A stretch of 64,000 nucleotides of DNA. Origin: Terriglobia bacterium. GTDB taxonomy: Bacteria > Acidobacteriota > Terriglobia > Bryobacterales > Bryobacteraceae. A program made the position numbers and the translations under genes. The stretch covers positions 88,740 to 152,739 of the forward strand of contig JAIQFE010000010.1 of assembly GCA_020073445.1 (NCBI GenBank). Reading direction: 5' to 3'. Position 1 is the stretch's first letter. Every line of letters begins with the position of its first letter. Shown one piece after another: positions 2,856 to 39,143 of the stretch. Below the pieces are notes generated by a model. The model was given only the letters and a program-made list of their open reading frames with translations, was not told where the DNA came from and did no database searches.

Positions 2856-3863
2856 GTGAGCATGTGGCGAAACATCGCGCTTTTGCTGGGCATTTCCCTG
2901 ATCGCCGGGGGACACGCCTGGGCGCAAGTCGTTACGCCGCGCGTGAAGCCGCCTAAGAAGGAAAAAGAGCCGGAGACCCAGACGTTACCGCTTCCACCCG
3001 AGCCTCCATCGGCGGTGATTGCGGAGACAGGCAAATTGGCGTTTCACGTCTCGCCGCTCTCGGCCAAGGGTCTGCTGACCCAGCAGGTGCACGATGCGCT
3101 CAAGGCGCTCGATCGGGCCAGCGGGGGTGCGACATTCGTGAAGCTGCGCGCGTTTGTCGCGGGCACCGGGGACATGCGCCGCGTGGCGACCATCGTGGCC
3201 GAGGATTTCTCGGATAAGAAAATGCCTCTGCCTGCGGTGACGACGATCCAGGTCGGCGCGCTTCCCATGGATGGCGCACAGGTGGTGATCGAGAGTATCA
3301 ATGCCGAGAAGAAGGTGGTGAATCCCAACGGCCTGGCGTTCTTTTCGGCCCAGCACGTCCCGGAGTTGGCGGCGGCGGCTAAGGCACAAGACGCGGTCAT
3401 GGTGCAGGTCACCTGCTTCGTGGGGGACCTCAATCAGGTGGATAGTGCGCGGGCGGCGGTAGCATCGGCGTTTCCGGGGTCAGCCGCGAACTTCGTGCAA
3501 CTCACGCGGCTGGCGGTCGAGCCGGGGACTGCGTGTGAAGGCGTAGGACGCCTCCAGAAGCCGGGAAACAGTCCGGCCAAGCTGGTGTTCACCGCCACCC
3601 AGATGGCGTTTGGGGATCAGGAGCAGGCCCTTCGGCTGGCTTACGGCCGTCTCGGACGGGCGCTCCAATCCATGAAAGCCTCTTACGCCGATGCGCTGGT
3701 GATGAGCGTTTATTCATTAGGCCGGCCAATGCCCGACAAAGCCGCGGCGCTGGCCCCCGAGTTCCTGGGTGGCGCCCACCCCACAGGCTCGACGCAAATC
3801 GTGGAAGGGCTACCCTCCTTGGACGCCACCGTCGCGATCGAGCTGATTGCCGCAGGCCCTTGA
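2856..3863 (+). CDS. Secreted protein with two tandem RidA/YjgF/TdcF-like (endoribonuclease L-PSP family) domains.
   Basis: 335 aa with an N-terminal signal peptide. Both halves show the RidA pattern: domain 1 is GATFVKLRAFVAGTGDMRRVATIVAEDF...PAVTTIQVGALPMDGAQVVIESI; domain 2 is AVMVQVTCFVGDLNQVDSARAAVASAF...FVQLTRLAVEPG. Confidence 0.5.
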   Translation: MSMWRNIALLLGISLIAGGHAWAQVVTPRVKPPKKEKEPETQTLPLPPEPPSAVIAETGKLAFHVSPLSAKGLLTQQVHDALKALDRASGGATFVKLRAFVAGTGDMRRVATIVAEDFSDKKMPLPAVTTIQVGALPMDGAQVVIESINAEKKVVNPNGLAFFSAQHVPELAAAAKAQDAVMVQVTCFVGDLNQVDSARAAVASAFPGSAANFVQLTRLAVEPGTACEGVGRLQKPGNSPAKLVFTATQMAFGDQEQALRLAYGRLGRALQSMKASYADALVMSVYSLGRPMPDKAAALAPEFLGGAHPTGSTQIVEGLPSLDATVAIELIAAGP

Positions 3864-3982
3864 CACCGCATCTCGTAACTGTTACTTTCTATTGAGATTT
3901 GCGGGTCAGACCGATTACCTCAACGGATGTACGCCGCAGCCGAATCCCGCGCCTCGGGGTCCGGTAGGATCTGGAGTCAGAC

Positions 3983-4483
3983 ATGGCTTATACGATAAAA
4001 GTGAACGGGCAGTCCAAGACTGTAGATGTGCCCGCGGATACGCCCCTACTGTGGGTGCTCCGAGACGTTCTTGACATGAAAGGCACCAAGTTCGGCTGCG
4101 GAGCCGGGCTTTGCGGTGCCTGCACGGTCCACGTGAACGGCAAAGCAGTCCGGTCTTGCCAGACACAAGTGGGCACCGTGAAAGATCCGGTGACGACGAT
4201 CGAAGGGTTGTCGGTAGACGGAACGCATCCAGTGCAGAAAGCCTGGATGGAAGTCGACGTCCCGCAGTGCGGGTATTGCCAGGCTGGCCAGATGATGACC
4301 GCATCGGCGCTGCTCGCGACCAAACCTCAGCCTACCGACAAGGACATTGACTCCGCTATGTACGGCAATCTTTGCCGCTGCGGAACGTATCTCAGAATTC
4401 GCCAGGCGATCCACAGGGCGGCTCAGCTAGCGTCCTCGCGGCCGGCGACCTCTGGCGGCGGCGCTGGAAGGGCAAGGGAGTAA
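3983..4483 (+). CDS. (2Fe-2S)-binding small subunit of a molybdenum hydroxylase (isoquinoline 1-oxidoreductase alpha / aldehyde oxidoreductase small-subunit type).
   Basis: 166 aa. Plant-type ferredoxin motif [12 protein letters not shown] and a second cluster motif [10 protein letters not shown]...CRCGTY. Lies immediately upstream of the Moco large subunit. Confidence 0.85.
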
Positions 4484-4495
4484 GGGAGAACGATC

Positions 4496-6823
4496 ATGAA
4501 AAAGAAAAACACCGTGAAGAATATCGATCGTCGCTCCTTTTTGACCGTGGCAGCCACCGGAACGGGTGGCGTGCTGTTTGGACTGGTATTTAAGGCGGAT
4601 GCCCAGCAGGGCGCTGCCAAAGGCGCTCCTCCGGCCGGAGGCCGTGGCGGCGCGGGTGGCTTCGGAGGCCCGGGTGCCGCGCTGAAGCCTGCCGACTTCA
4701 TCACCGTCAACTCCGACAACAGCGTCACCATCGTCGCGAAGAACCCCGAAGTAGGCCAGGGCGTTCGCTCGTTGTTGCCGATGCTGATCGCCGAAGAACT
4801 CGACGTCGATTGGAAGGACGTTAAAGTCGTCCAGGCCGATCAGGATCAGGCTAAGTACGGCGGCCAGATCGCGGGCGGCAGCACGGCGACCCCAACCAAC
4901 TGGGTTCCGATGCGGCAGCTCGGCGCGCAGGCGCGGATGATGTTCGTCAACGCCGCGGCGCAGACCTGGAATGTTCCCGCAGCCGATCTGACTACCGGTT
5001 CCGGCAAAGTGATGCACAAGGCATCTAACCGGACCATCACCTACGGCGAACTGGCTTCGAAAGTGGCCAGCATGACGCCTCCGGATGCCGCGTCGATCAA
5101 GTACAAGGATCCGAAAGACTACAAGATCATCGGGACGACGGTTCCCAGCCCCGATCTTCCCAAGATCATCACCGGCAAGCCGGTTTTTGGCATCGACCAG
5201 ACTGTTCCTGGCATGCTGTACGCCGTGTACGAGAAGTGCGGCGTGTTCGGCGGCAAGGTTAAGACGCATAATCTCGACATGATCAAGACGCTGCCGGGCA
5301 TCAAGGCTGCGTTCGTGGTTGACCGGCCGGACATCACCGCCGCGGTACTACCCGGCGATCCGGGTCTTGAGAGCGGAATCGCGATCGTCGCGGAATCGTG
5401 GTACCAGGCGAATTCGGCTCGCAAGAAGCTGCAAGTCACCTGGGACGAAGGCACTCGCGCGACTGCGGATCACAGCAGCACCGCGTACGCCGCGAAAGCG
5501 CAAACCATCGGCATGGGCGAGCCCATGAGCACCACGCGCAAGGACGGTGATCCGGAAGGCGCCATCAAGACTGCGGCCAAGAAAGTGGAAGCGAACTATA
5601 CGTATCCGTTTATTTCGCACGCACCGCTCGAACCGCAGAACTGCACGGCGCATTATAAGGACGGCAAGCTGGAGCTGTGGACCAGCAGCCAGATTCCGAC
5701 GGGCGCCCGTGGGTTGGCTGCCACGGCTTGCGGCATCGATCAGAGTGCCATCACGCTGCACATGGTCCGCGGCGGCGGCGGCTTCGGCCGGCGCTTGACC
5801 AACGATTACGCGGCGGAAGCGGCGTACATCTCCAAGGAAGTCGGAGCTCCGGTAAAGCTGCTCTGGACCCGCGAAGACGATATGAAGCACGACTATTATC
5901 GTCCCGGCGGGTACCAGTTCCTTTCGGCCGGTCTCGACGCGTCGGGCAAGGTAGTCGCGTGGCGGAATCACTTCGTCACCTACGGCGCCAAGAACGACGG
6001 CCAGGGCAAGGGTCCCGCGATCCAGTCCGTCAGCGCGGGCGGCATCGGCGCGACCGAGTTCCCGCAACCGTTCATCGAGAACTTCGCGCTGTACACTTCG
6101 GCTCAGCCGCTGGCGATCCGCACGGGTTCGCTGCGCGCTCCGACGAGCAACGCGATGGCGTTCGTCACGCAGAGCTTCATCGACGAGCTGGCGCATGCCG
6201 CCGGCAAGGATCCGGTGCAGTTCCGCCGCGATCTGTTGTCGCAGACCAAGCCCGCTCCTCCTCCTGCACCTGGCGGATTCGGTGGCGGTAACGCGTTCAA
6301 CGCGTCCCGTATGCGTGGCGTCCTTGACCTGGTCGCCGAGAAGTCGGGCTGGGGCAAGAAGACGCTTCCCAAGGGCACCGCGATGGGCGTGGGTTTCCAC
6401 TTCAGCCATAGCGGTTACTTCGCGGAAGTCGCCGAAGTCACCGTTAGCGGCAACAAGAAGGTGAAGGTGAACAAGGTGTGGGTCGCCGCCGACATCGGCA
6501 GCACCATCATCAATCCCGGTCAGGCGATGAACATGGCGCAGGGCGCCATCATCGATGGCATGGGCGCGATGATGGAGCAGGAGATTACGGTGGATCACGG
6601 CCACGTGGTGCAATCGAACTTCGATACGCATCCGCTGCTCCGGATTACCGCGGCTCCGGCCGACATCGAAGTGCACTACGTCCTGTCGAACAATCCTCCG
6701 ACTGGTATGGGCGAACCGTCCATGCCCCCGATTCTGCCGGCAATCGCGAATGCGATCTTCTCGGCAACGGGCGATCGCGTCCGGTCGCTGCCTTTCAAGA
6801 AGGCGGGCTATAGCTGGGCGTAA
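4496..6823 (+). CDS. Molybdopterin-dependent oxidoreductase large subunit (IorB-like, xanthine dehydrogenase family) with a Tat signal.
   Basis: 775 aa. Twin-arginine leader NIDRRSFLTVAATGTGGVLFG. Size and composition are typical of the aldehyde oxidase / xanthine dehydrogenase Moco-binding fold. The start is 13 nt after the 2Fe-2S subunit stop, so the two are probably co-transcribed. Confidence 0.8.
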   Translation: MKKKNTVKNIDRRSFLTVAATGTGGVLFGLVFKADAQQGAAKGAPPAGGRGGAGGFGGPGAALKPADFITVNSDNSVTIVAKNPEVGQGVRSLLPMLIAEELDVDWKDVKVVQADQDQAKYGGQIAGGSTATPTNWVPMRQLGAQARMMFVNAAAQTWNVPAADLTTGSGKVMHKASNRTITYGELASKVASMTPPDAASIKYKDPKDYKIIGTTVPSPDLPKIITGKPVFGIDQTVPGMLYAVYEKCGVFGGKVKTHNLDMIKTLPGIKAAFVVDRPDITAAVLPGDPGLESGIAIVAESWYQANSARKKLQVTWDEGTRATADHSSTAYAAKAQTIGMGEPMSTTRKDGDPEGAIKTAAKKVEANYTYPFISHAPLEPQNCTAHYKDGKLELWTSSQIPTGARGLAATACGIDQSAITLHMVRGGGGFGRRLTNDYAAEAAYISKEVGAPVKLLWTREDDMKHDYYRPGGYQFLSAGLDASGKVVAWRNHFVTYGAKNDGQGKGPAIQSVSAGGIGATEFPQPFIENFALYTSAQPLAIRTGSLRAPTSNAMAFVTQSFIDELAHAAGKDPVQFRRDLLSQTKPAPPPAPGGFGGGNAFNASRMRGVLDLVAEKSGWGKKTLPKGTAMGVGFHFSHSGYFAEVAEVTVSGNKKVKVNKVWVAADIGSTIINPGQAMNMAQGAIIDGMGAMMEQEITVDHGHVVQSNFDTHPLLRITAAPADIEVHYVLSNNPPTGMGEPSMPPILPAIANAIFSATGDRVRSLPFKKAGYSWA

Positions 6824-33004: not shown

Positions 33005-33649
33005 TCAGTCCTGGCGGGGCGGGCGATTCGCGTCGCTCGCCCGGCGTCTTCCCAACACCAGCGACAAAAGCCCCAGTCCGGTTGAAATCATCACAGCCGG
33101 TTCAGGAACTGGTATGAAATTGTACTGGAAGAACGATGGGTCATAGTAGAAGTAACCTGGGTCGGGATCGTAGAATTGCTGCAAACCCACGTGCACTGTC
33201 CCGCCGCCGATTAGCGGGATAGTGATCCCCGATGTTGTGAAGCTCCCCGAGGCGGAGAAGCGTCCGCTGGCACCGCTCGGACCGTTACTCGGACCCAGCG
33301 CGGCATTGAGATACGACGTCACGTCCAGGTTGACAGCGCCGAATGTCGGATCGCAGACCGGGCAAGTCGGTGATAACACGACGCTCGCCGACACGTGATC
33401 CGTGAACGTTGTCACCCCATAATAAGGGGGGAACGAATCCGTCATATTCACAGAGAAAAGGCTGAAGTCCACACCTCCGGTCGAAAAGTGGAGCGTTAAA
33501 TCGTCCGTCTCGCCCAGAAAATTGTGGTTGAGGACCGAATAACTGCGGGAGATGGAGCCGCCTGTAATCTCTGTCACGGGTTCCGCCCGGAGCGCCAAAA
33601 CACCAAACGCGCCCAACCCGAGAGCCATAAGGCACGGTTTCATTGACAT
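33005..33649 (-). CDS. PEP-CTERM sorting-domain protein (exosortase substrate).
   Basis: 214 aa. Signal peptide. C-terminal VPEP-AVMISTGLGLLSLVLG-RRR matches the PEP motif + TM + basic cluster. Confidence 0.75.
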   Translation of the reverse strand: MSMKPCLMALGLGAFGVLALRAEPVTEITGGSISRSYSVLNHNFLGETDDLTLHFSTGGVDFSLFSVNMTDSFPPYYGVTTFTDHVSASVVLSPTCPVCDPTFGAVNLDVTSYLNAALGPSNGPSGASGRFSASGSFTTSGITIPLIGGGTVHVGLQQFYDPDPGYFYYDPSFFQYNFIPVPEPAVMISTGLGLLSLVLGRRRASDANRPPRQD

Positions 33650-33713: not shown

Positions 33714-33743
33714 TTGTCAACCCAAGTCCACCTGCGATATCCT
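33714..33743 (+). promoter_or_regulatory. Possible sigma-70-type promoter of rpsT.
   Basis: TTGTCA (33714..33719), then 18 nt, then TATCCT (33738..33743), about 10 nt upstream of the rpsT ATG. Sequence-only guess. Confidence 0.25.
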
Positions 33744-33752
33744 ATAGATTCC

Positions 33753-34022
33753 ATGGCAAACACAGTTTCCGCGCTGAAGCGCGTCCGAATGACCGAACGC
33801 CGGACGGGCGTCAACCGGACCCGCAAGACTCGTCTCCGTCACCAGATCCGCGCAATGCGCCGGCTTCTGGAGTCGAAGGACGCCAAGGGTGCGACCGAAC
33901 TCATCCCGAAGACTTTCTCGGTGATCGATCGCGCCGCCAAGTGGGGCATCATCAAGAAGAACACGGCTGCCCGTTATAAGAGCCGTCTGTCGATCCGGAT
34001 TCGCAAGATCGCAAGCGCGTAA
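33753..34022 (+). CDS. rpsT: 30S ribosomal protein S20.
   Basis: Start at the internal ATG of track ORF 33714..34022: [40 protein letters not shown]... (89 aa). Basic, alpha-helical S20 pattern. Confidence 0.85.
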
Positions 34023-34028
34023 CGCGCC

Positions 34029-35102
34029 TTAGCGCGCCGTTAACGCGAACACCATCTCTTCCATCAAAATGCGGTCGTCGGGACGAGCGTCCCGAAGTCC
34101 GCGATCTGTTTCGAACACCTTCTCTACAGCCAGTGCCAGGTGTTCTTTCGAGAATGCTTCCATAGTCTGCTCGATCTGCCGAGCCCGTTCGGGCCACATG
34201 CGCGCGCCCAGTTTATTGAAGTGCGCCTGAATCTGGCTGGCGCCTCGCAGTCCTGCCTCACGAGCCGCAAGCGCGGTCCGAAACTGCGTAGCGAGGAAGG
34301 TCAGAGCAAGAGGCATATATTCGCCTGACCGTGAGAGCGTGTCCAGGATATCGAGAGCCCTGGCACGGTCACCCCGGCCCAGTGCGGCCACGAGGACGAA
34401 GATGGTGCTCGACTGTGCGTCGGGGACCAGCGCGGCGATATCGCCGGCAGTGATCTTGCGCGCAGTTCCGGCGAACAGCCGCAGCTTCTCGATTTCCATG
34501 GCAATGCGCGAGGCGTCGCCGCCGGTGGCTTCGAGCAGCAACGCCAATTCCGCAAGACCCAGTTGGATCCCGGCTTCCTTGGCTAACTTCTGGGCCAGGA
34601 AACGCGCGGCTTCCGGCGCATAGGGACGGAACTCGACCTTGGCCGGCACCGCCGCGAAGAATGTTTCCACCCGCTCCATTCGAGGCTTATCTTCGCCTTC
34701 AAACTCGTAACGTGAGCAGTCGATCACCAGGGTCACGTCCGGCGTGGGCTCTTTCAGGTAAGCGGCGAGACTGGCTCCGCCGGTCTCGTCCTCGGCTTCG
34801 GCGTCCTCACTGTTCGCGCGGCCTCGGGGCGCACGCGGGACAGCGGCTTCGGCCGCGGCGAGCCAGATCAATCGGCGCGAGGCGAACAGTGACAGCGCAC
34901 GTGCATCGTCCAGCGCGGCTGCGAGCGGGGTCCGATCCAGATCGTGGCGCGTAAATCCGTTCTCGCGTTCGTCGGGCGTGAGTACGGCATCGAGCAGCGC
35001 GCGGCGGCAGCGCGTCCGCTCAAACGCTTCGGGGCCCAAAAAAAGATAGGCGGGTTCGGGACCGTTCTTCGCTAGCCTTGCTAGAAACTGATCGGGCGTC
35101 AT
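34029..35102 (-). CDS. holA: DNA polymerase III subunit delta.
   Basis: 357 aa. ..PAYLFLGPEAFER.. N-terminus and ..GGDASRIAMEIEKLRLFAG.., typical of HolA. Conserved lptE-holA adjacency. Confidence 0.75.
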   Translation of the reverse strand: MTPDQFLARLAKNGPEPAYLFLGPEAFERTRCRRALLDAVLTPDERENGFTRHDLDRTPLAAALDDARALSLFASRRLIWLAAAEAAVPRAPRGRANSEDAEAEDETGGASLAAYLKEPTPDVTLVIDCSRYEFEGEDKPRMERVETFFAAVPAKVEFRPYAPEAARFLAQKLAKEAGIQLGLAELALLLEATGGDASRIAMEIEKLRLFAGTARKITAGDIAALVPDAQSSTIFVLVAALGRGDRARALDILDTLSRSGEYMPLALTFLATQFRTALAAREAGLRGASQIQAHFNKLGARMWPERARQIEQTMEAFSKEHLALAVEKVFETDRGLRDARPDDRILMEEMVFALTAR

Positions 35103-35114
35103 ATCGTCTGAACT

Positions 35115-35624
35115 TCAGAAATTTTCGAGAACGGCGCTGACGATGGAACGGGCCACTTGCTGTCCAGCGCGCTTCAGCGCAGGATCGCTTTCCTCGAAGT
35201 ACTGGGGGGCATCCGGGCTGATCTGGTAAGTCTCGCGCACGTCAAAGTTCTTCCGGTCAAAGAGGACCTTACCGGTGGTTCGCTCCGTCAGCGTGACGGA
35301 GAGCGTCACGCGCAGTTCGGCGTAGGCTGCGCGGCCATTCGCGGGATCGAAGGTGGTCGGATTAAAAGAATAGTTGACCACCGCGCCGCGCAGAACCGCG
35401 TCCGCGGTATTCGTGTCGGGCACGATCCGGTAGCGCGTGCGAGTCAGAAATTCGCGGGAGATCGCCTCCGGCATCTGATCCGAAAGCTTGTAGCGCGTAG
35501 TCAGATTGTTGAAGGCCGGGATCGCGATGGTGTGGACGGTCTTCGGCAGGGTGGTGTCCGTAGCCGCGAACTTGTAGCCGCAGCAGGCCAACGTCAGCGG
35601 AAGCAGCGCCAGCAGGTACCTCAC
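35115..35624 (-). CDS. lptE: LPS-assembly lipoprotein LptE.
   Basis: 169 aa. Lipobox LTLAC-C. LptE-like pattern, positioned immediately upstream of holA as in many Gram-negatives. Confidence 0.65.
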   Translation of the reverse strand: MRYLLALLPLTLACCGYKFAATDTTLPKTVHTIAIPAFNNLTTRYKLSDQMPEAISREFLTRTRYRIVPDTNTADAVLRGAVVNYSFNPTTFDPANGRAAYAELRVTLSVTLTERTTGKVLFDRKNFDVRETYQISPDAPQYFEESDPALKRAGQQVARSIVSAVLENF

Positions 35625-36619
35625 AAACTTTCCTTGGCCACGGCGACAGCATTTTCAGCCGCCAGACGCAGATTATCCGACGCCAGCCAAAACCATGACG
35701 CGCGCGGCTGATTGTGGTCGACGGCGATCGCACCCACGCTCAATCCACTTTGTCCGGCCATGCCGACGTTCGACGGAGGCTCATCCGTGCGCACATCGAG
35801 ACCCGCTTGGACCAAGGCTCTCGTGAGCGATTCGGCGCCGGGATTCTCTTCGAACTCCACCCAGGCCGAGATGCTGTGCCCGTGAAACACCGGCGCCTGT
35901 ATCACGCGCAGCGAAGGCATGGGAATGCCGGGCCAGGCGGTCAGCAGCGACGCCAGATGCTTCTCCACCCGCTGCTCGATGCTTTCCAGCGGCTCCAGGG
36001 CTTCTTCGCCGTAACGCGCCAGCATGTTGAACGCGAGCTGCGTATCGAACACGTCCATTTTCAGTTTCTGGAAAGACAGCACGCCGACGGTTTGCTGCTG
36101 CAATTCGTCCAGGCCTCGCTGGCCGCGCTCGCTGGCCGGTTCGAACACGTGCACCACGGACCGGCGAATCGTTGCCACTTTGGAAAGGCGTCCCAGGAGC
36201 ATCGCCAGAGCGATGGCCGCGGGGTGTGCGATGACTTGTATGGGCGAATCGGAATGCTGTGGCGCAGGGTCGGCGAAAGGCGCGCGCAGCCGGGCTTCAG
36301 GCTGTTCTTCGAGCCCGCCCGCCAGATCGATAAGCCGCGGACCGCCCTTGGGATTGACCTTGAGTGCCCTGCGGCTGGACGCGGGCGAGCCCGCTAAGAA
36401 CGCAACCGTGGTTCCCGCCAGACTTTCGGCCGTAAGCGGCGCCATGACGATCGGCTCATCGCCTTCCGCGGAGAGTTTGGCGGTGCCGTCTCCGGATGCG
36501 GAGATCAATTGCACGCGCGGCGCTGGTTTGGTTTCGCCCAGCACTTCACGGATTTCTTTCGCCAGCAGCGTGTCGCCACCCACCAGCGCGATCAGGGGAC
36601 GCTCGGTTAGGCTAGCCAA
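35621..36619 (-). CDS. Aspartate-semialdehyde dehydrogenase-fold protein lacking the catalytic Cys and the NAD(P) glycine loop (Asd-like pseudoenzyme, or divergent chemistry).
   Basis: 332 aa. C-terminal ..FWLASDNLRLAAENAVAVAKE.. matches Asd ..LWVVADNLRKGAALNAVQIAE.. The block ..QLAFNMLA.. and His-containing ..APVFHGHSISAWVEF.. match Asd ..QIAFN.. and ..VPVF.GHS.. Where Asd has NPNCST, this protein has IAHPAAIAL, with no Cys. The N-terminal dinucleotide motif is degenerate (ALVGGDTLLA versus VGATGAVG). Confidence 0.6.
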   Translation of the reverse strand: MASLTERPLIALVGGDTLLAKEIREVLGETKPAPRVQLISASGDGTAKLSAEGDEPIVMAPLTAESLAGTTVAFLAGSPASSRRALKVNPKGGPRLIDLAGGLEEQPEARLRAPFADPAPQHSDSPIQVIAHPAAIALAMLLGRLSKVATIRRSVVHVFEPASERGQRGLDELQQQTVGVLSFQKLKMDVFDTQLAFNMLARYGEEALEPLESIEQRVEKHLASLLTAWPGIPMPSLRVIQAPVFHGHSISAWVEFEENPGAESLTRALVQAGLDVRTDEPPSNVGMAGQSGLSVGAIAVDHNQPRASWFWLASDNLRLAAENAVAVAKESL

Positions 36620-37535
36620 CTTGATGCTCCGGCCGGTTGTCCGGTTGAGAGTGCGATGGACGCAGGCGGCGGCGTATGATGCCTCCGGCGCGGATCGCGA
36701 TGCCGCTGAGAACGTAGCAGAGCGACATCCCCAGCAACATGGGCTGCGACAAGTCCCAGATCAGGTAGATCAGGATACTCAAGACGACGAAGGTTATCGG
36801 AGATCGCGGACGCACCAGGCTGAGGTCCTTGAAGCTGGGATAGCGCCAGGTGCTGACCATCAGGAACGCAAGCAGTCCGAGTACCGCGAGCCAGACCGTC
36901 GAAAAGACCCAGGACTCCAGAGGGCCGCTATCGACGAAGGCGTAGACCACGCTGGCCACCATGGCGGCGGCGGCTGGAATCGGCATTCCCACGAAGTACT
37001 TGCGATCCGCGCGCCCGGGATTCTTCGGTACGGGATTGACTTGGACATTGAAACGCGCCAGGCGCAGCGCCCCGCACAGCAGAAACAGAAACGCACAAAA
37101 GTATCCGGCACGATGCAAGTGATCCACCGTGAGCGGGGCAGGCGGGGCACTGGCGAACTCGACGCCCCAAGCGTAAGCCAGCACGGCCGGCGCGATGCCG
37201 AAACTGATCACGTCGGCCAGCGAATCCATTTCGCGGCCGAAATCGCTGACGGTTTTGGTGAGGCGCGCGATGCGGCCATCCAGGCCGTCGAGAAAGACGG
37301 CGACACCGATGGCAATCGCAGCGGCGCGAAAATGTCCGCTCGCGGCAGCCTGCGAGTTCGCCTGTACATTCAGGAGCGCCCCGCGGAATGCTTCCATGAT
37401 GGAGTAGAAACCAAGGAATACGTTGCCCGCCGTGAACAAAGTCGGCAAGGCGTAGGCCGCGCGCCGGGGACTCCTGTCGGGCGAGCGTGGATCGATCAGC
37501 CGTTCTTGCAACCGCAATCGTTTCATTCCGCTCAT
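36612..37535 (-). CDS. pssA: CDP-diacylglycerol--serine O-phosphatidyltransferase (CDP-alcohol phosphatidyltransferase family).
   Basis: 307 aa. Motif ..FLDGLDGRIARL....DSLADVISFGIAPA.. (D-G-x2-A-R-x8-G-x3-D-x3-D). Multiple TM helices. Confidence 0.8.
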   Translation of the reverse strand: MSGMKRLRLQERLIDPRSPDRSPRRAAYALPTLFTAGNVFLGFYSIMEAFRGALLNVQANSQAAASGHFRAAAIAIGVAVFLDGLDGRIARLTKTVSDFGREMDSLADVISFGIAPAVLAYAWGVEFASAPPAPLTVDHLHRAGYFCAFLFLLCGALRLARFNVQVNPVPKNPGRADRKYFVGMPIPAAAAMVASVVYAFVDSGPLESWVFSTVWLAVLGLLAFLMVSTWRYPSFKDLSLVRPRSPITFVVLSILIYLIWDLSQPMLLGMSLCYVLSGIAIRAGGIIRRRLRPSHSQPDNRPEHQVG

Positions 37536-38167
37536 ACGGCCTCCGTTGCCGCAGCCTCACGAATACGGGCAAGGATGCTTGAACCCGCGCTTACGCGGTC
37601 GCCCGGGCTCACCACAATCTCCCATTCGGGGCCTAGAAATACATCGACGCGCGAACCGAACTTGATCAGCCCGATGCGCTCGCCTGGCTCCAGAATGTCG
37701 CCCGGCTTTTTGTAACAAATAATCCGGCGGGCGATCAAGCCGGCGATCTGCTTGAACATTACGGTCGTGTGAACGCCGCCGACGATCCCGTCCACGGTTA
37801 TGATGCTCTGCTCGTTGGCGTCGCTGGCCTCGGTTTTGTTGGCGGCCAGAAACTTGCCCTTTTTGTAAGTGACGCAGGTAACCTTGCCGGGAATCGGCGT
37901 CCGATTCACGTGGACATCGAAGACGTTGAGAAAAATGCTGATGCGGTTTGCGCCCGATGCGACGGGCCGGATCGCGACCACTTTGCCGTCCGCCGGGGAC
38001 ACGGCGACAGGGCCCGGAGGAACCTGGCGCTCGGGATCGCGGAAGAAATTCAGGCAGAAGACCGCGAGAACGTAGAAGGGCAGGGCATAAGGCCATCCCA
38101 ATAGGTACGTGGCGACGGCAGCACCTCCCAGCAACCCACCCGCATAGTAGTAGCCGTAGGACAGCAT
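37532..38167 (-). CDS. psd: Phosphatidylserine decarboxylase (short, archaetidylserine-decarboxylase-like form).
   Basis: 211 aa. N-terminal TM. ..GKVTCVTYKKGKFLAANKTEASDANEQS.. and ..IKFGSRVDVFL.. with the GS processing site region. Overlaps pssA by 4 nt. Confidence 0.75.
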   Translation of the reverse strand: MLSYGYYYAGGLLGGAAVATYLLGWPYALPFYVLAVFCLNFFRDPERQVPPGPVAVSPADGKVVAIRPVASGANRISIFLNVFDVHVNRTPIPGKVTCVTYKKGKFLAANKTEASDANEQSIITVDGIVGGVHTTVMFKQIAGLIARRIICYKKPGDILEPGERIGLIKFGSRVDVFLGPEWEIVVSPGDRVSAGSSILARIREAAATEAV

Positions 38168-38413: not shown

Positions 38414-38761
38414 ATGAGCCATGCAAAGCCGGAAAACCAGATCGACTATATCGAGCTGCCCGCGTCCGATATCGAGAAAACCAAGACCTTCTATCGATCG
38501 GTTTTTGGCTGGGAGTTTACCGACTACGGTCCCGACTACACCAGCTTCCACGACGGTCGCATGGCCGGCGGCTTTACCAAATTGCAGGCTCCTGGCACGG
38601 GCGTGTTACTCGTGATCTATTCGACCGATTTGGACGCGGTTCAGAAAAAGATCCTGGCCGCTGGCGGACGGATCGTCAAGGACACGTTCTCGTTTCCCGG
38701 CGGGCGGAGATTTCACTTCTCCGATCCGAATGGCAACGAACTCGCCGTCTGGAGCGAATGA
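38414..38761 (+). CDS. VOC-family (glyoxalase / bleomycin-resistance fold) protein.
   Basis: 115 aa. ..IDYIELPASDIEKTKTFYRSVFGWEF.. and ..GNELAVWSE, a typical single-domain VOC. Confidence 0.75.
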   Translation: MSHAKPENQIDYIELPASDIEKTKTFYRSVFGWEFTDYGPDYTSFHDGRMAGGFTKLQAPGTGVLLVIYSTDLDAVQKKILAAGGRIVKDTFSFPGGRRFHFSDPNGNELAVWSE

Positions 38762-38762
38762 A

Positions 38763-39143
38763 ATGGTCGAAAGCGCTGAAAAAGACCCGCGCGTATACCT
38801 CGCGGCCGAGAGGACGCTGCTGGCCTGGATTCGAACCGGACTGGCCATGATGGGATTCGGATTCGTGGTGGCGCGGTTTGGACTCTTTCTGCGGGAAATG
38901 CAGGCTGTCCAGCAAGGCACGCCCCTGGCATCCGGCCGCGGATCGCTATGGTTCGGGATCGCGCTGGTCCTGATGGGAGTACTGGTGAATCTTTCCGCGG
39001 TGTTTCACCACAAGCGCCTGGTGCGCGAGTTGAGAGAAGGCAATTGGGATGCCGATCGTCCGGCACGTACCGGAATGATCGTAGCGGTTGTGCTCGCCAT
39101 CGCCGGTTTGGCGGTCGCCATTTATTTGCTGACCGTGCGCTAG
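38763..39143 (+). CDS. DUF202/YidH-family small membrane protein.
   Basis: Start at the ATG 1 nt after the VOC stop: MVESAEKDPRVYLAAERTLLAWIRTGLAMMGFGFVVARF... (the ERT-LAW-RT motif of DUF202). Two or three TM helices. Confidence 0.7.
   Translation: MVESAEKDPRVYLAAERTLLAWIRTGLAMMGFGFVVARFGLFLREMQAVQQGTPLASGRGSLWFGIALVLMGVLVNLSAVFHHKRLVRELREGNWDADRPARTGMIVAVVLAIAGLAVAIYLLTVR

Follow-up and report, generated by a model that had tools for sequence, protein, structure and literature searches.

What does a dehydrogenase fold do once the residues of its chemistry are gone and its gene stands behind two genes of phospholipid synthesis? This question is raised by asdL, a gene on the minus strand of a 64-kb stretch of DNA from a Terriglobia bacterium (contig JAIQFE010000010.1); the whole stretch of 64,000 nucleotides (nt) is referred to below as the window. 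The product of the gene, AsdL, is a cytoplasmic protein with the complete two-domain fold of aspartate-semialdehyde dehydrogenase (Asd, EC 1.2.1.11), and it is descended from the Asd2/USG-1 lineage. An earlier note on this DNA had described it as an Asd-fold protein without a catalytic Cys, and translation places the open reading frame (ORF) and the peptides quoted from it (VGGDTLLAKE, AHPAA and FHGHS) where that note had put them (Table 1). It is proposed here, with about as much confidence as doubt, that AsdL belongs to the phosphatidylserine synthase/decarboxylase module encoded by pssA and psd, as an accessory subunit that is non-catalytic or at any rate not a dehydrogenase.

The fold itself is clearly defined. 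An AlphaFold2 (AF2) model of AsdL built on an alignment of 100 sequences reached a predicted local distance difference test score (pLDDT) of 96.2 and a predicted template modelling score (pTM) of 0.94; the single sequence had given a pLDDT of only 35, and the alignment was used instead. The top match of this model in a Foldseek search of the PDB was 2hjs, the USG-1 homolog of P. aeruginosa, with a template modelling (TM) score of 0.84 and an E value of 4e-27. True Asd structures of V. cholerae (Asd2), P. gingivalis and S. pneumoniae followed at TM 0.80-0.83, and about 20 top Asd-family chains covered a range of TM 0.76-0.84. The confident model and these matches indicate that both domains of the Asd fold are intact, in agreement with the original description. 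In Pfam, the C-terminal Asd domain (PF02774) was recognized at 52.5 bits against a cut-off of 26, which together with the fold makes AsdL a member of the Asd/ArgC structural superfamily, and the N-terminal domain model (PF01118) gave no match at E <= 0.01.

Compared with true Asd (model TIGR01296; V. cholerae Asd2, 2qz9 and 2r00; P. gingivalis, 8juo), AsdL has the same fold and domain order, and it shares the motifs ID(98), S163, G166, ELxxQ, QxAFN, P243 and DN(315-316)xR. Unlike Asd, it contains no Cys and no equivalents of Arg102, Glu241 and Arg267, its Gly loop is degenerate, and S-E-R-G stands in the place of S-G-A-G. The curated models reflect this distance, and AsdL fails the cut-offs of all of them, for Asd and USG alike. 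The NCBIfam models align along its full length, with scores far under the curated cut-offs: 66.9 bits against 324.2 for TIGR01296 (asd_B), 78.6 against 223 for NF011456 (Asd) and 38.9 against 628 for NF005229 (Asd), that is, 3 to 16 times under the Asd cut-offs. The best NCBIfam score came from the USG-1 model NF004224/PRK05671 (110.5 bits, cut-off 284), and the model of E. coli Usg, NF005957/PRK08040, gave 58.2 bits against 273.

AsdL has many relatives of its own kind. When 1.84 billion cluster representatives were searched exhaustively with phmmer, 226 clusters (50% identity) were returned at E <= 1e-30. The named members fall into three groups, Bryobacterales/Bryobacteraceae, 'Candidatus Acidoferrales' and Acidobacteriaceae, all of them Acidobacteriota. 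On a hidden Markov model (HMM) built from 100 members, family proteins score 330-470 bits, 2hjs 203, E. coli Usg 167 and true Asds 135-147. By these scores the AsdL family is discrete, standing apart from both USG-1 and Asd.

The former active site shows what has been lost. In AsdL, the active-site turn of Asd (NPNC or GGNC) has become AHPAA (A131-A135), and in the AF2 model the N-terminus of helix 133-146 falls at this motif. In Asd the catalytic Cys (Cys135 in E. coli, Cys136 in H. influenzae) forms the thioester/thiohemiacetal. The aligners differ on its exact column: phmmer against solved structures sets it opposite A135 (8juo, NPNC) or A134 (2hjs, SPCAV), and MAFFT and hmmalign set it opposite P133, two residues off the phmmer placement. 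This disagreement is immaterial because the whole protein contains not a single Cys, and the reported loss of the catalytic residue is thus confirmed under any placement. In the family alignment Cys never exceeds 20% of a column, and residues 130-137 of AsdL include neither Ser nor Thr nor Cys. H132, within the same turn, is present in 82 of 92 family representatives.

The residues that hold the substrate have changed as well. Positions were mapped with MAFFT and hmmalign onto E. coli Asd, whose numbering serves as the reference, and the residue roles were taken from a 2025 review, in which Arg102 and Lys244 bind phosphate, Glu241 the amino group of the substrate and Arg267 its carboxylate (PMC12041015). 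The equivalents in AsdL are E104 for Arg102, I214 for Glu241, R217 for Lys244 and Q241 for Arg267, with R217 the sole conservative change among the four. E160 stands at the position of Gln162, and in the S-E-R-G turn E164 replaces the first Gly of S-G-A-G in 78-100% of sequences per group. Judged by these residues, AsdL can neither form a thioester nor hold aspartyl-phosphate in the ancestral way.

These data bear on the possibility that AsdL is a genuine Asd with an alternative nucleophile, or else a dying pseudogene. Family members are often labelled 'aspartate-semialdehyde dehydrogenase' in source databases, and H248 does align with the catalytic His. The absence of Cys, the lack of a Ser, Thr or Cys at 130-137, the replacement of Arg102, Glu241 and Arg267, and the scores on the curated models all speak against a working Asd. 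As regards a pseudogene, the pairwise ratio of non-synonymous to synonymous substitution rates (dN/dS) of asdL against its orthologues in four loci (L001, L002, L003 and L006) is 0.042-0.082. In these pairs psd and pssA have ratios of 0.06-0.14, and the asdL values are equal to or below those of psd, pssA and holA. With these values and with ORFs intact in nearly all loci, asdL is not decaying, and both forms of this explanation are effectively refuted. Purifying selection on a protein that has lost its catalytic residues implies a pseudoenzyme or a neo-functionalised protein, the two options that had been put forward from the first reading of the sequence. The N-terminus LASLTERPL, which follows from the TTG start, is kept in L001-L003.

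Some loci do contain broken frames. In four long-read metagenome-assembled genomes (MAGs) of the MFD* series (L010, L021, L023 and L024), tblastn matches to five genes are split over several frames. Assembly indels are likelier there than pseudogenisation because psd, pssA, asdL, lptE and holA are all affected.

The annotation of such proteins has practical consequences. Thousands of AsdL-type proteins carry the label 'aspartate-semialdehyde dehydrogenase' in metagenome databases, and a wrong label would credit genomes with an extra asd in metabolic reconstructions. A canonical asd had been said to be missing from the window, and tblastn with five Asd/Usg references indeed found no second Asd homolog in its 64 kb. 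None was found either in about 500 kb that comprised the window, 27 of 29 acidobacterial loci and three non-acidobacterial loci.

The cofactor site has undergone a comparable change. In Asd, the GxxGxxG and S-G-A-G motifs contact nicotinamide adenine dinucleotide phosphate (NADP). The first of them reads G14-G-D-T17-L-L-A20 in AsdL in place of the G-A-T-G-x-V-G of Asd and USG-1 proteins (IVGVSGAVGQE in 8juo, VVGATGSVGEA in 2hjs), the central Gly having become Thr17 and the third Gly Ala20. Position 17 is Thr or Ser in 89 of 92 representatives and in about 97-99% of sequences in each of the three groups (about 97% in the family), so the degeneracy noticed in this one protein is a property of the whole family. 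Near-invariant columns number 4 of 117 in the N-terminal domain, compared with 15 of 184 in the C-terminal domain. AsdL has probably lost canonical NADP(H) binding, and it probably catalyses no redox step.

The histidines need a finer distinction. It had been claimed that the catalytic His is retained. For AsdL of the window this stands, as H248 aligns with the acid/base His274 of E. coli Asd (His277 in H. influenzae) and is His in 100% of Bryobacterales sequences, but it is a lineage-specific trait and does not hold for the family, in which position 248 is Tyr in 55 and His in 16 of 92 representatives; among Acidobacteriaceae-like sequences, 73% have Tyr. Most of the family instead conserves H246, which precedes H248 by two residues on one and the same strand and is missing from the Acidoferrales group.

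H246 and its partner H132 give rise to a second explanation, namely that AsdL is a new enzyme. A thiol-independent site made of His132, His246, Glu160 or Glu164 and Gln241, possibly with a metal, could carry out another reaction on serine, phosphatidylserine (PS), phosphatidylethanolamine (PE) or an envelope-precursor metabolite. Family conservation is strongest at residues 151-200 and 241-255, which line the former active site; all three groups keep E164 and Q241, and selection on the gene is very strong. Moreover, H132 and H246 tend to be kept or lost together (both His in 84 of 98 representatives, neither in 6, mixed in 8). A precedent exists in that some members of the GAPDH-like superfamily work without Cys (PMC12041015). 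However, the 'Ca. Acidoferrales' group has Pro or Ser for H132 and Tyr for H246 in an unchanged operon position, which argues that the His pair is not essential to whatever role the three groups share. In addition, the cofactor loop is degenerate, and the PssA/Psd pathway lacks no reaction for which a candidate enzyme would be sought. A new catalytic activity is therefore considered somewhat unlikely.

The closest relatives of AsdL outside the family are the orphan USG-1 proteins, with 2hjs at the top in phmmer, in Foldseek and among the outsiders tested on the family HMM. This protein (PA3116) matches AsdL at a phmmer E value of 2.5e-19, and its curated model is also the one on which AsdL scores best. 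The two have in common the Q-A-P-V-F strand (Gln for Arg267), ELxxQT...LL and QxAFN. Unlike AsdL, 2hjs retains a canonical loop (GATGSVG) and has Cys within its active-site turn (SPCAV), and it is without both His residues (FFGD). E. coli Usg (b2319, annotated 'putative semialdehyde dehydrogenase') is 31% identical to AsdL over 265 amino acids (E 1e-17), likewise lacks the catalytic Cys (VPDS), and has comparable QAPVFYGH and RQLAFNML segments. It differs from AsdL in keeping GATGAVG and in sharing 46% identity with V. cholerae 2qz9, a true Asd2, and for these reasons it is a much more recent offshoot. The reference USG-1 proteins themselves have lost different residues, since E. coli Usg has no Cys and keeps the His (FYGH), and 2hjs keeps a Cys with FFGD at the His.

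Relative to USG-1, the motifs peculiar to the AsdL family are AHPAA, EPASExG, FHGY and W309. The family is the most remodelled pseudo-Asd of the USG-1 type among the versions examined: it lacks Cys and a canonical Gly loop, and conserved His and Glu residues have newly appeared in it. The idea of a pseudo-Asd is not new in itself because residue loss in the USG branch has already been noted: according to the same 2025 review, this branch and some Asd2-affiliated sequences have lost catalytic residues, and there is no further information on them (PMC12041015). Beyond that one-sentence remark, nothing was found in the literature on the AsdL family or its psd-pssA operon.

The genomic position of asdL provides the main functional clue. 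In the window, psd, pssA, asdL, lptE and holA form one tightly packed same-strand string (Table 1), with junction overlaps of 4 nt between psd and pssA, 8 nt between pssA and asdL (36612-36619) and 4 nt between asdL and lptE (GTGA). No minus-strand terminator-like site was found inside the string from psd to holA. The 8-nt overlap and the joint string with psd and pssA had been recognized before; the overlap with lptE is an addition. By this arrangement, asdL is the third gene of a psd-pssA-asdL transcription unit, with probable translational coupling. PssA carries the CDP-alcohol transferase motif DGLDGRIAR...G...D...D.

The linkage was then compared across 24 genome loci, 5 loci recovered via distant members and 80 metagenome loci (scan with a 10-sequence alignment), the psd counts being restricted to loci with enough flank. 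Over all loci, pssA is the immediate upstream neighbour of asdL, in the same orientation, in 88 of 89 cases, and psd lies upstream in 70 of 70. In Bryobacterales and Acidoferrales-type loci the corresponding counts are 28/28 for pssA and 27/27 for psd, and lptE and holA follow downstream in 28/28. Acidobacteriaceae-like loci have pssA in the same position in 60/61 and psd in 43/43, and lptE and holA follow in 0/41. In this last set asdL closes the operon; it is followed by an unrelated gene, in many cases on the opposite strand (trehalase, HD phosphohydrolase, ferritin-like genes or a phage integrase). The conserved unit is thus psd-pssA-asdL, and the overlap with lptE is lineage-specific. Co-occurrence with pssA and psd, first suggested by the single locus, therefore extends to all three acidobacterial groups.

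Departures from this order are few. Three of the 61 Acidobacteriaceae-like loci have sporadic insertions that separate pssA from asdL, namely a 379-amino-acid lipoprotein-like ORF (L055:4748-5884), two small ORFs of 123 and 165 amino acids (L086:5038-5904) and a 134-amino-acid ORF on the opposite strand (L066:5243-5644). In L005, a Terriglobia MAG, a same-strand gene for a 919-amino-acid Ser/Thr kinase with PD40 beta-propeller repeats (3145-5904, plus strand) stands between asdL and lptE, and the break falls after asdL there too. This 2.9-kb insert had been considered as leuS, by comparison with the proteobacterial leuS-lptE-holA order, and was rejected once identified as the kinase. P0189, a metagenome protein of 406 amino acids in which AsdL residues 151-275 run into WD40-like repeats, is probably a chimeric or frameshifted call, and may be related to the kinase/PD40 insertion of L005.

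A third explanation is that the linkage is incidental, so that AsdL would keep a USG-1 role unrelated to lipids and merely ride on the psd-pssA transcript in Acidobacteriota. Its closest characterised relatives, in sequence and in structure, are USG-1 proteins, and E. coli usg (L032:4637-5650) lies in the order pdxB-usg-truA-dedA, away from pssA and psd; asdL, for its part, stands behind psd-pssA and not beside truA. The functionally unrelated lptE and holA also share the string. On the other hand, the adjacency to pssA persists down to about 33% protein identity and through three groups, while both outer flanks and the downstream neighbour vary across that range, and linkage of such depth makes coincidence less likely. 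The family is also far from USG-1 on its own HMM (203 bits for 2hjs against at least 330 for members) and has lost the Gly loop that Usg and 2hjs keep. An incidental association is accordingly regarded as unlikely.

In its descent from the Asd2/USG-1 lineage, AsdL has given up aspartate-semialdehyde dehydrogenase chemistry and kept its two-domain fold. The two Gly-rich motifs now hold larger residues, namely Thr or Ser at position 17 of GxxGxxG and Glu164 in S-G-A-G. As an accessory subunit of the PS synthase/decarboxylase module, the protein might serve as a scaffold, a regulator or a small-ligand sensor of PS/PE synthesis; as a sensor, it could accommodate its ligand in the remodelled pocket of the former active site (H132, E160, E164, Q241 and H246).

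Several observations weigh against the accessory-subunit proposal. Gene order alone cannot establish function, and it is only the linkage that points to a contact with PssA or Psd. Such operons mix unrelated essential genes, as the lptE-holA pair of the same string illustrates, and the proteobacterial relative usg has another context (pdxB-usg-truA). The near-invariant pair of His132 and His246, together with Glu164 at the former catalytic centre, could point to catalysis rather than to binding alone. The AF2 model still folds the N-terminal Rossmann domain with confidence, distant family members still match PF01118, and it is motifs alone that speak for the loss of NADP binding. Finally, apparent pssA-asdL fusion proteins (P0126, P0215 and P0243) lend no Rosetta-stone support, as these are fragments in which the junction, where stop and start overlap, was read through or frameshifted.

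A precedent for such an arrangement is pssA-ybfM-psd of B. subtilis, in which an uncharacterised third gene, ybfM, is co-transcribed with the PS synthase/decarboxylase pair. Its product is a membrane protein unrelated to Asd, and the analogy with psd-pssA-asdL is one of arrangement only. A more specific version of the accessory role, which is held to be quite improbable, would have the Asd scaffold, built for aspartyl-phosphate, repurposed as a non-redox third component of PE synthesis. Its ligand would be the phosphoserine head-group of PS, or a compound derived from serine or CDP-diacylglycerol, and it would either transfer PS between PssA and Psd, in that direction, or modulate the activity of the two enzymes. 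If this were true, the USG-1 branch of pseudo-Asd proteins, whose 'dead' Asd paralogues have long been catalogued without a function, would also gain a first hint of its role. The stable partnership with psd-pssA, the pair responsible for making PE, unlike the situation of proteobacterial usg, offers a testable handle on the role of such a pseudoenzyme in a phylum abundant in soil.

Table 1. Positions of asdL, its remodelled motifs and the genes of the same string in the window
Feature	Position	Strand	Basis or remark
psd, phosphatidylserine decarboxylase proenzyme, first gene of the string	37532..38167	-	PF02666, E 3e-41; FGSR self-cleavage motif, residue 170
pssA, CDP-diacylglycerol--serine O-phosphatidyltransferase	36612..37535	-	PF01066; TIGR00473, 124 bits, cut-off 107
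GGAG, Shine-Dalgarno-like element	36627..36630	-	7 nt 5' of the asdL TTG, within the 3' end of pssA
asdL, 332-amino-acid cysteine-free Asd/USG-1-like protein	35621..36619	-	ORF with TTG start; PF02774, AF2, Foldseek
VGGDTLLAKE (V13-E22), degenerate dinucleotide loop	36554..36583	-	translation; aligned to 8juo and 2hjs
AHPAA (A131-A135), replaces the NPNC/GGNC active-site turn of Asd, without nucleophile	36215..36229	-	alignments, translation
EPASERG (E160-G166), replaces YQAxSGAG of Asd	36122..36142	-	alignments
Q241, replaces the substrate-carboxylate-binding Arg267 (E. coli numbering)	35897..35899	-	alignments; conserved in all three groups
FHGHS (F245-S249)	35873..35887	-	H246, conserved in most family members; H248, opposite His274 (E. 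coli numbering)
lptE-like lipoprotein gene, GTG start	35115..35624	-	PF04390, E 3e-14; lipobox LTLAC
holA (DNA polymerase III delta), last gene of the string	34029..35102	-	TIGR01128, 170.6 bits, cut-off 80

Beyond the operon, the flanks show features of their own. At the downstream end, rpsT (plus strand, 33714-34022) converges on holA with 6 nt between the stops, an arrangement shared by nearly every locus of Bryobacterales and Acidoferrales. Upstream of psd, the window has a divergent glyoxalase/DUF202 pair (38414-39143). Other groups have, 5' of psd and on the same strand, genes for a MeaB-like GTPase, TsaB (TsaD family), a RimI-type acetyltransferase and DUF465, with or without a redoxin; this block, found at L026:449-4371, L113:2211-3424 and L114:165-3031, is replaced in the window by the glyoxalase/DUF202 pair.

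One locus stands out by its label. L011 (JBLNCW010000078.1), named 'Rhodospirillales bacterium MAG115', contains psd-pssA-asdL-lptE-holA/rpsT with an asdL 55% identical to that of the window. It closely resembles L022, from Acidobacteriota, and is probably a mis-binned contig. In the window, positions 33005-33649 (minus strand) encode a secreted-looking protein of 214 amino acids with no Pfam match, whose C-terminus, VPEPAVMISTGLGLLSLVLGRRRA, resembles a PEP-CTERM sorting signal.

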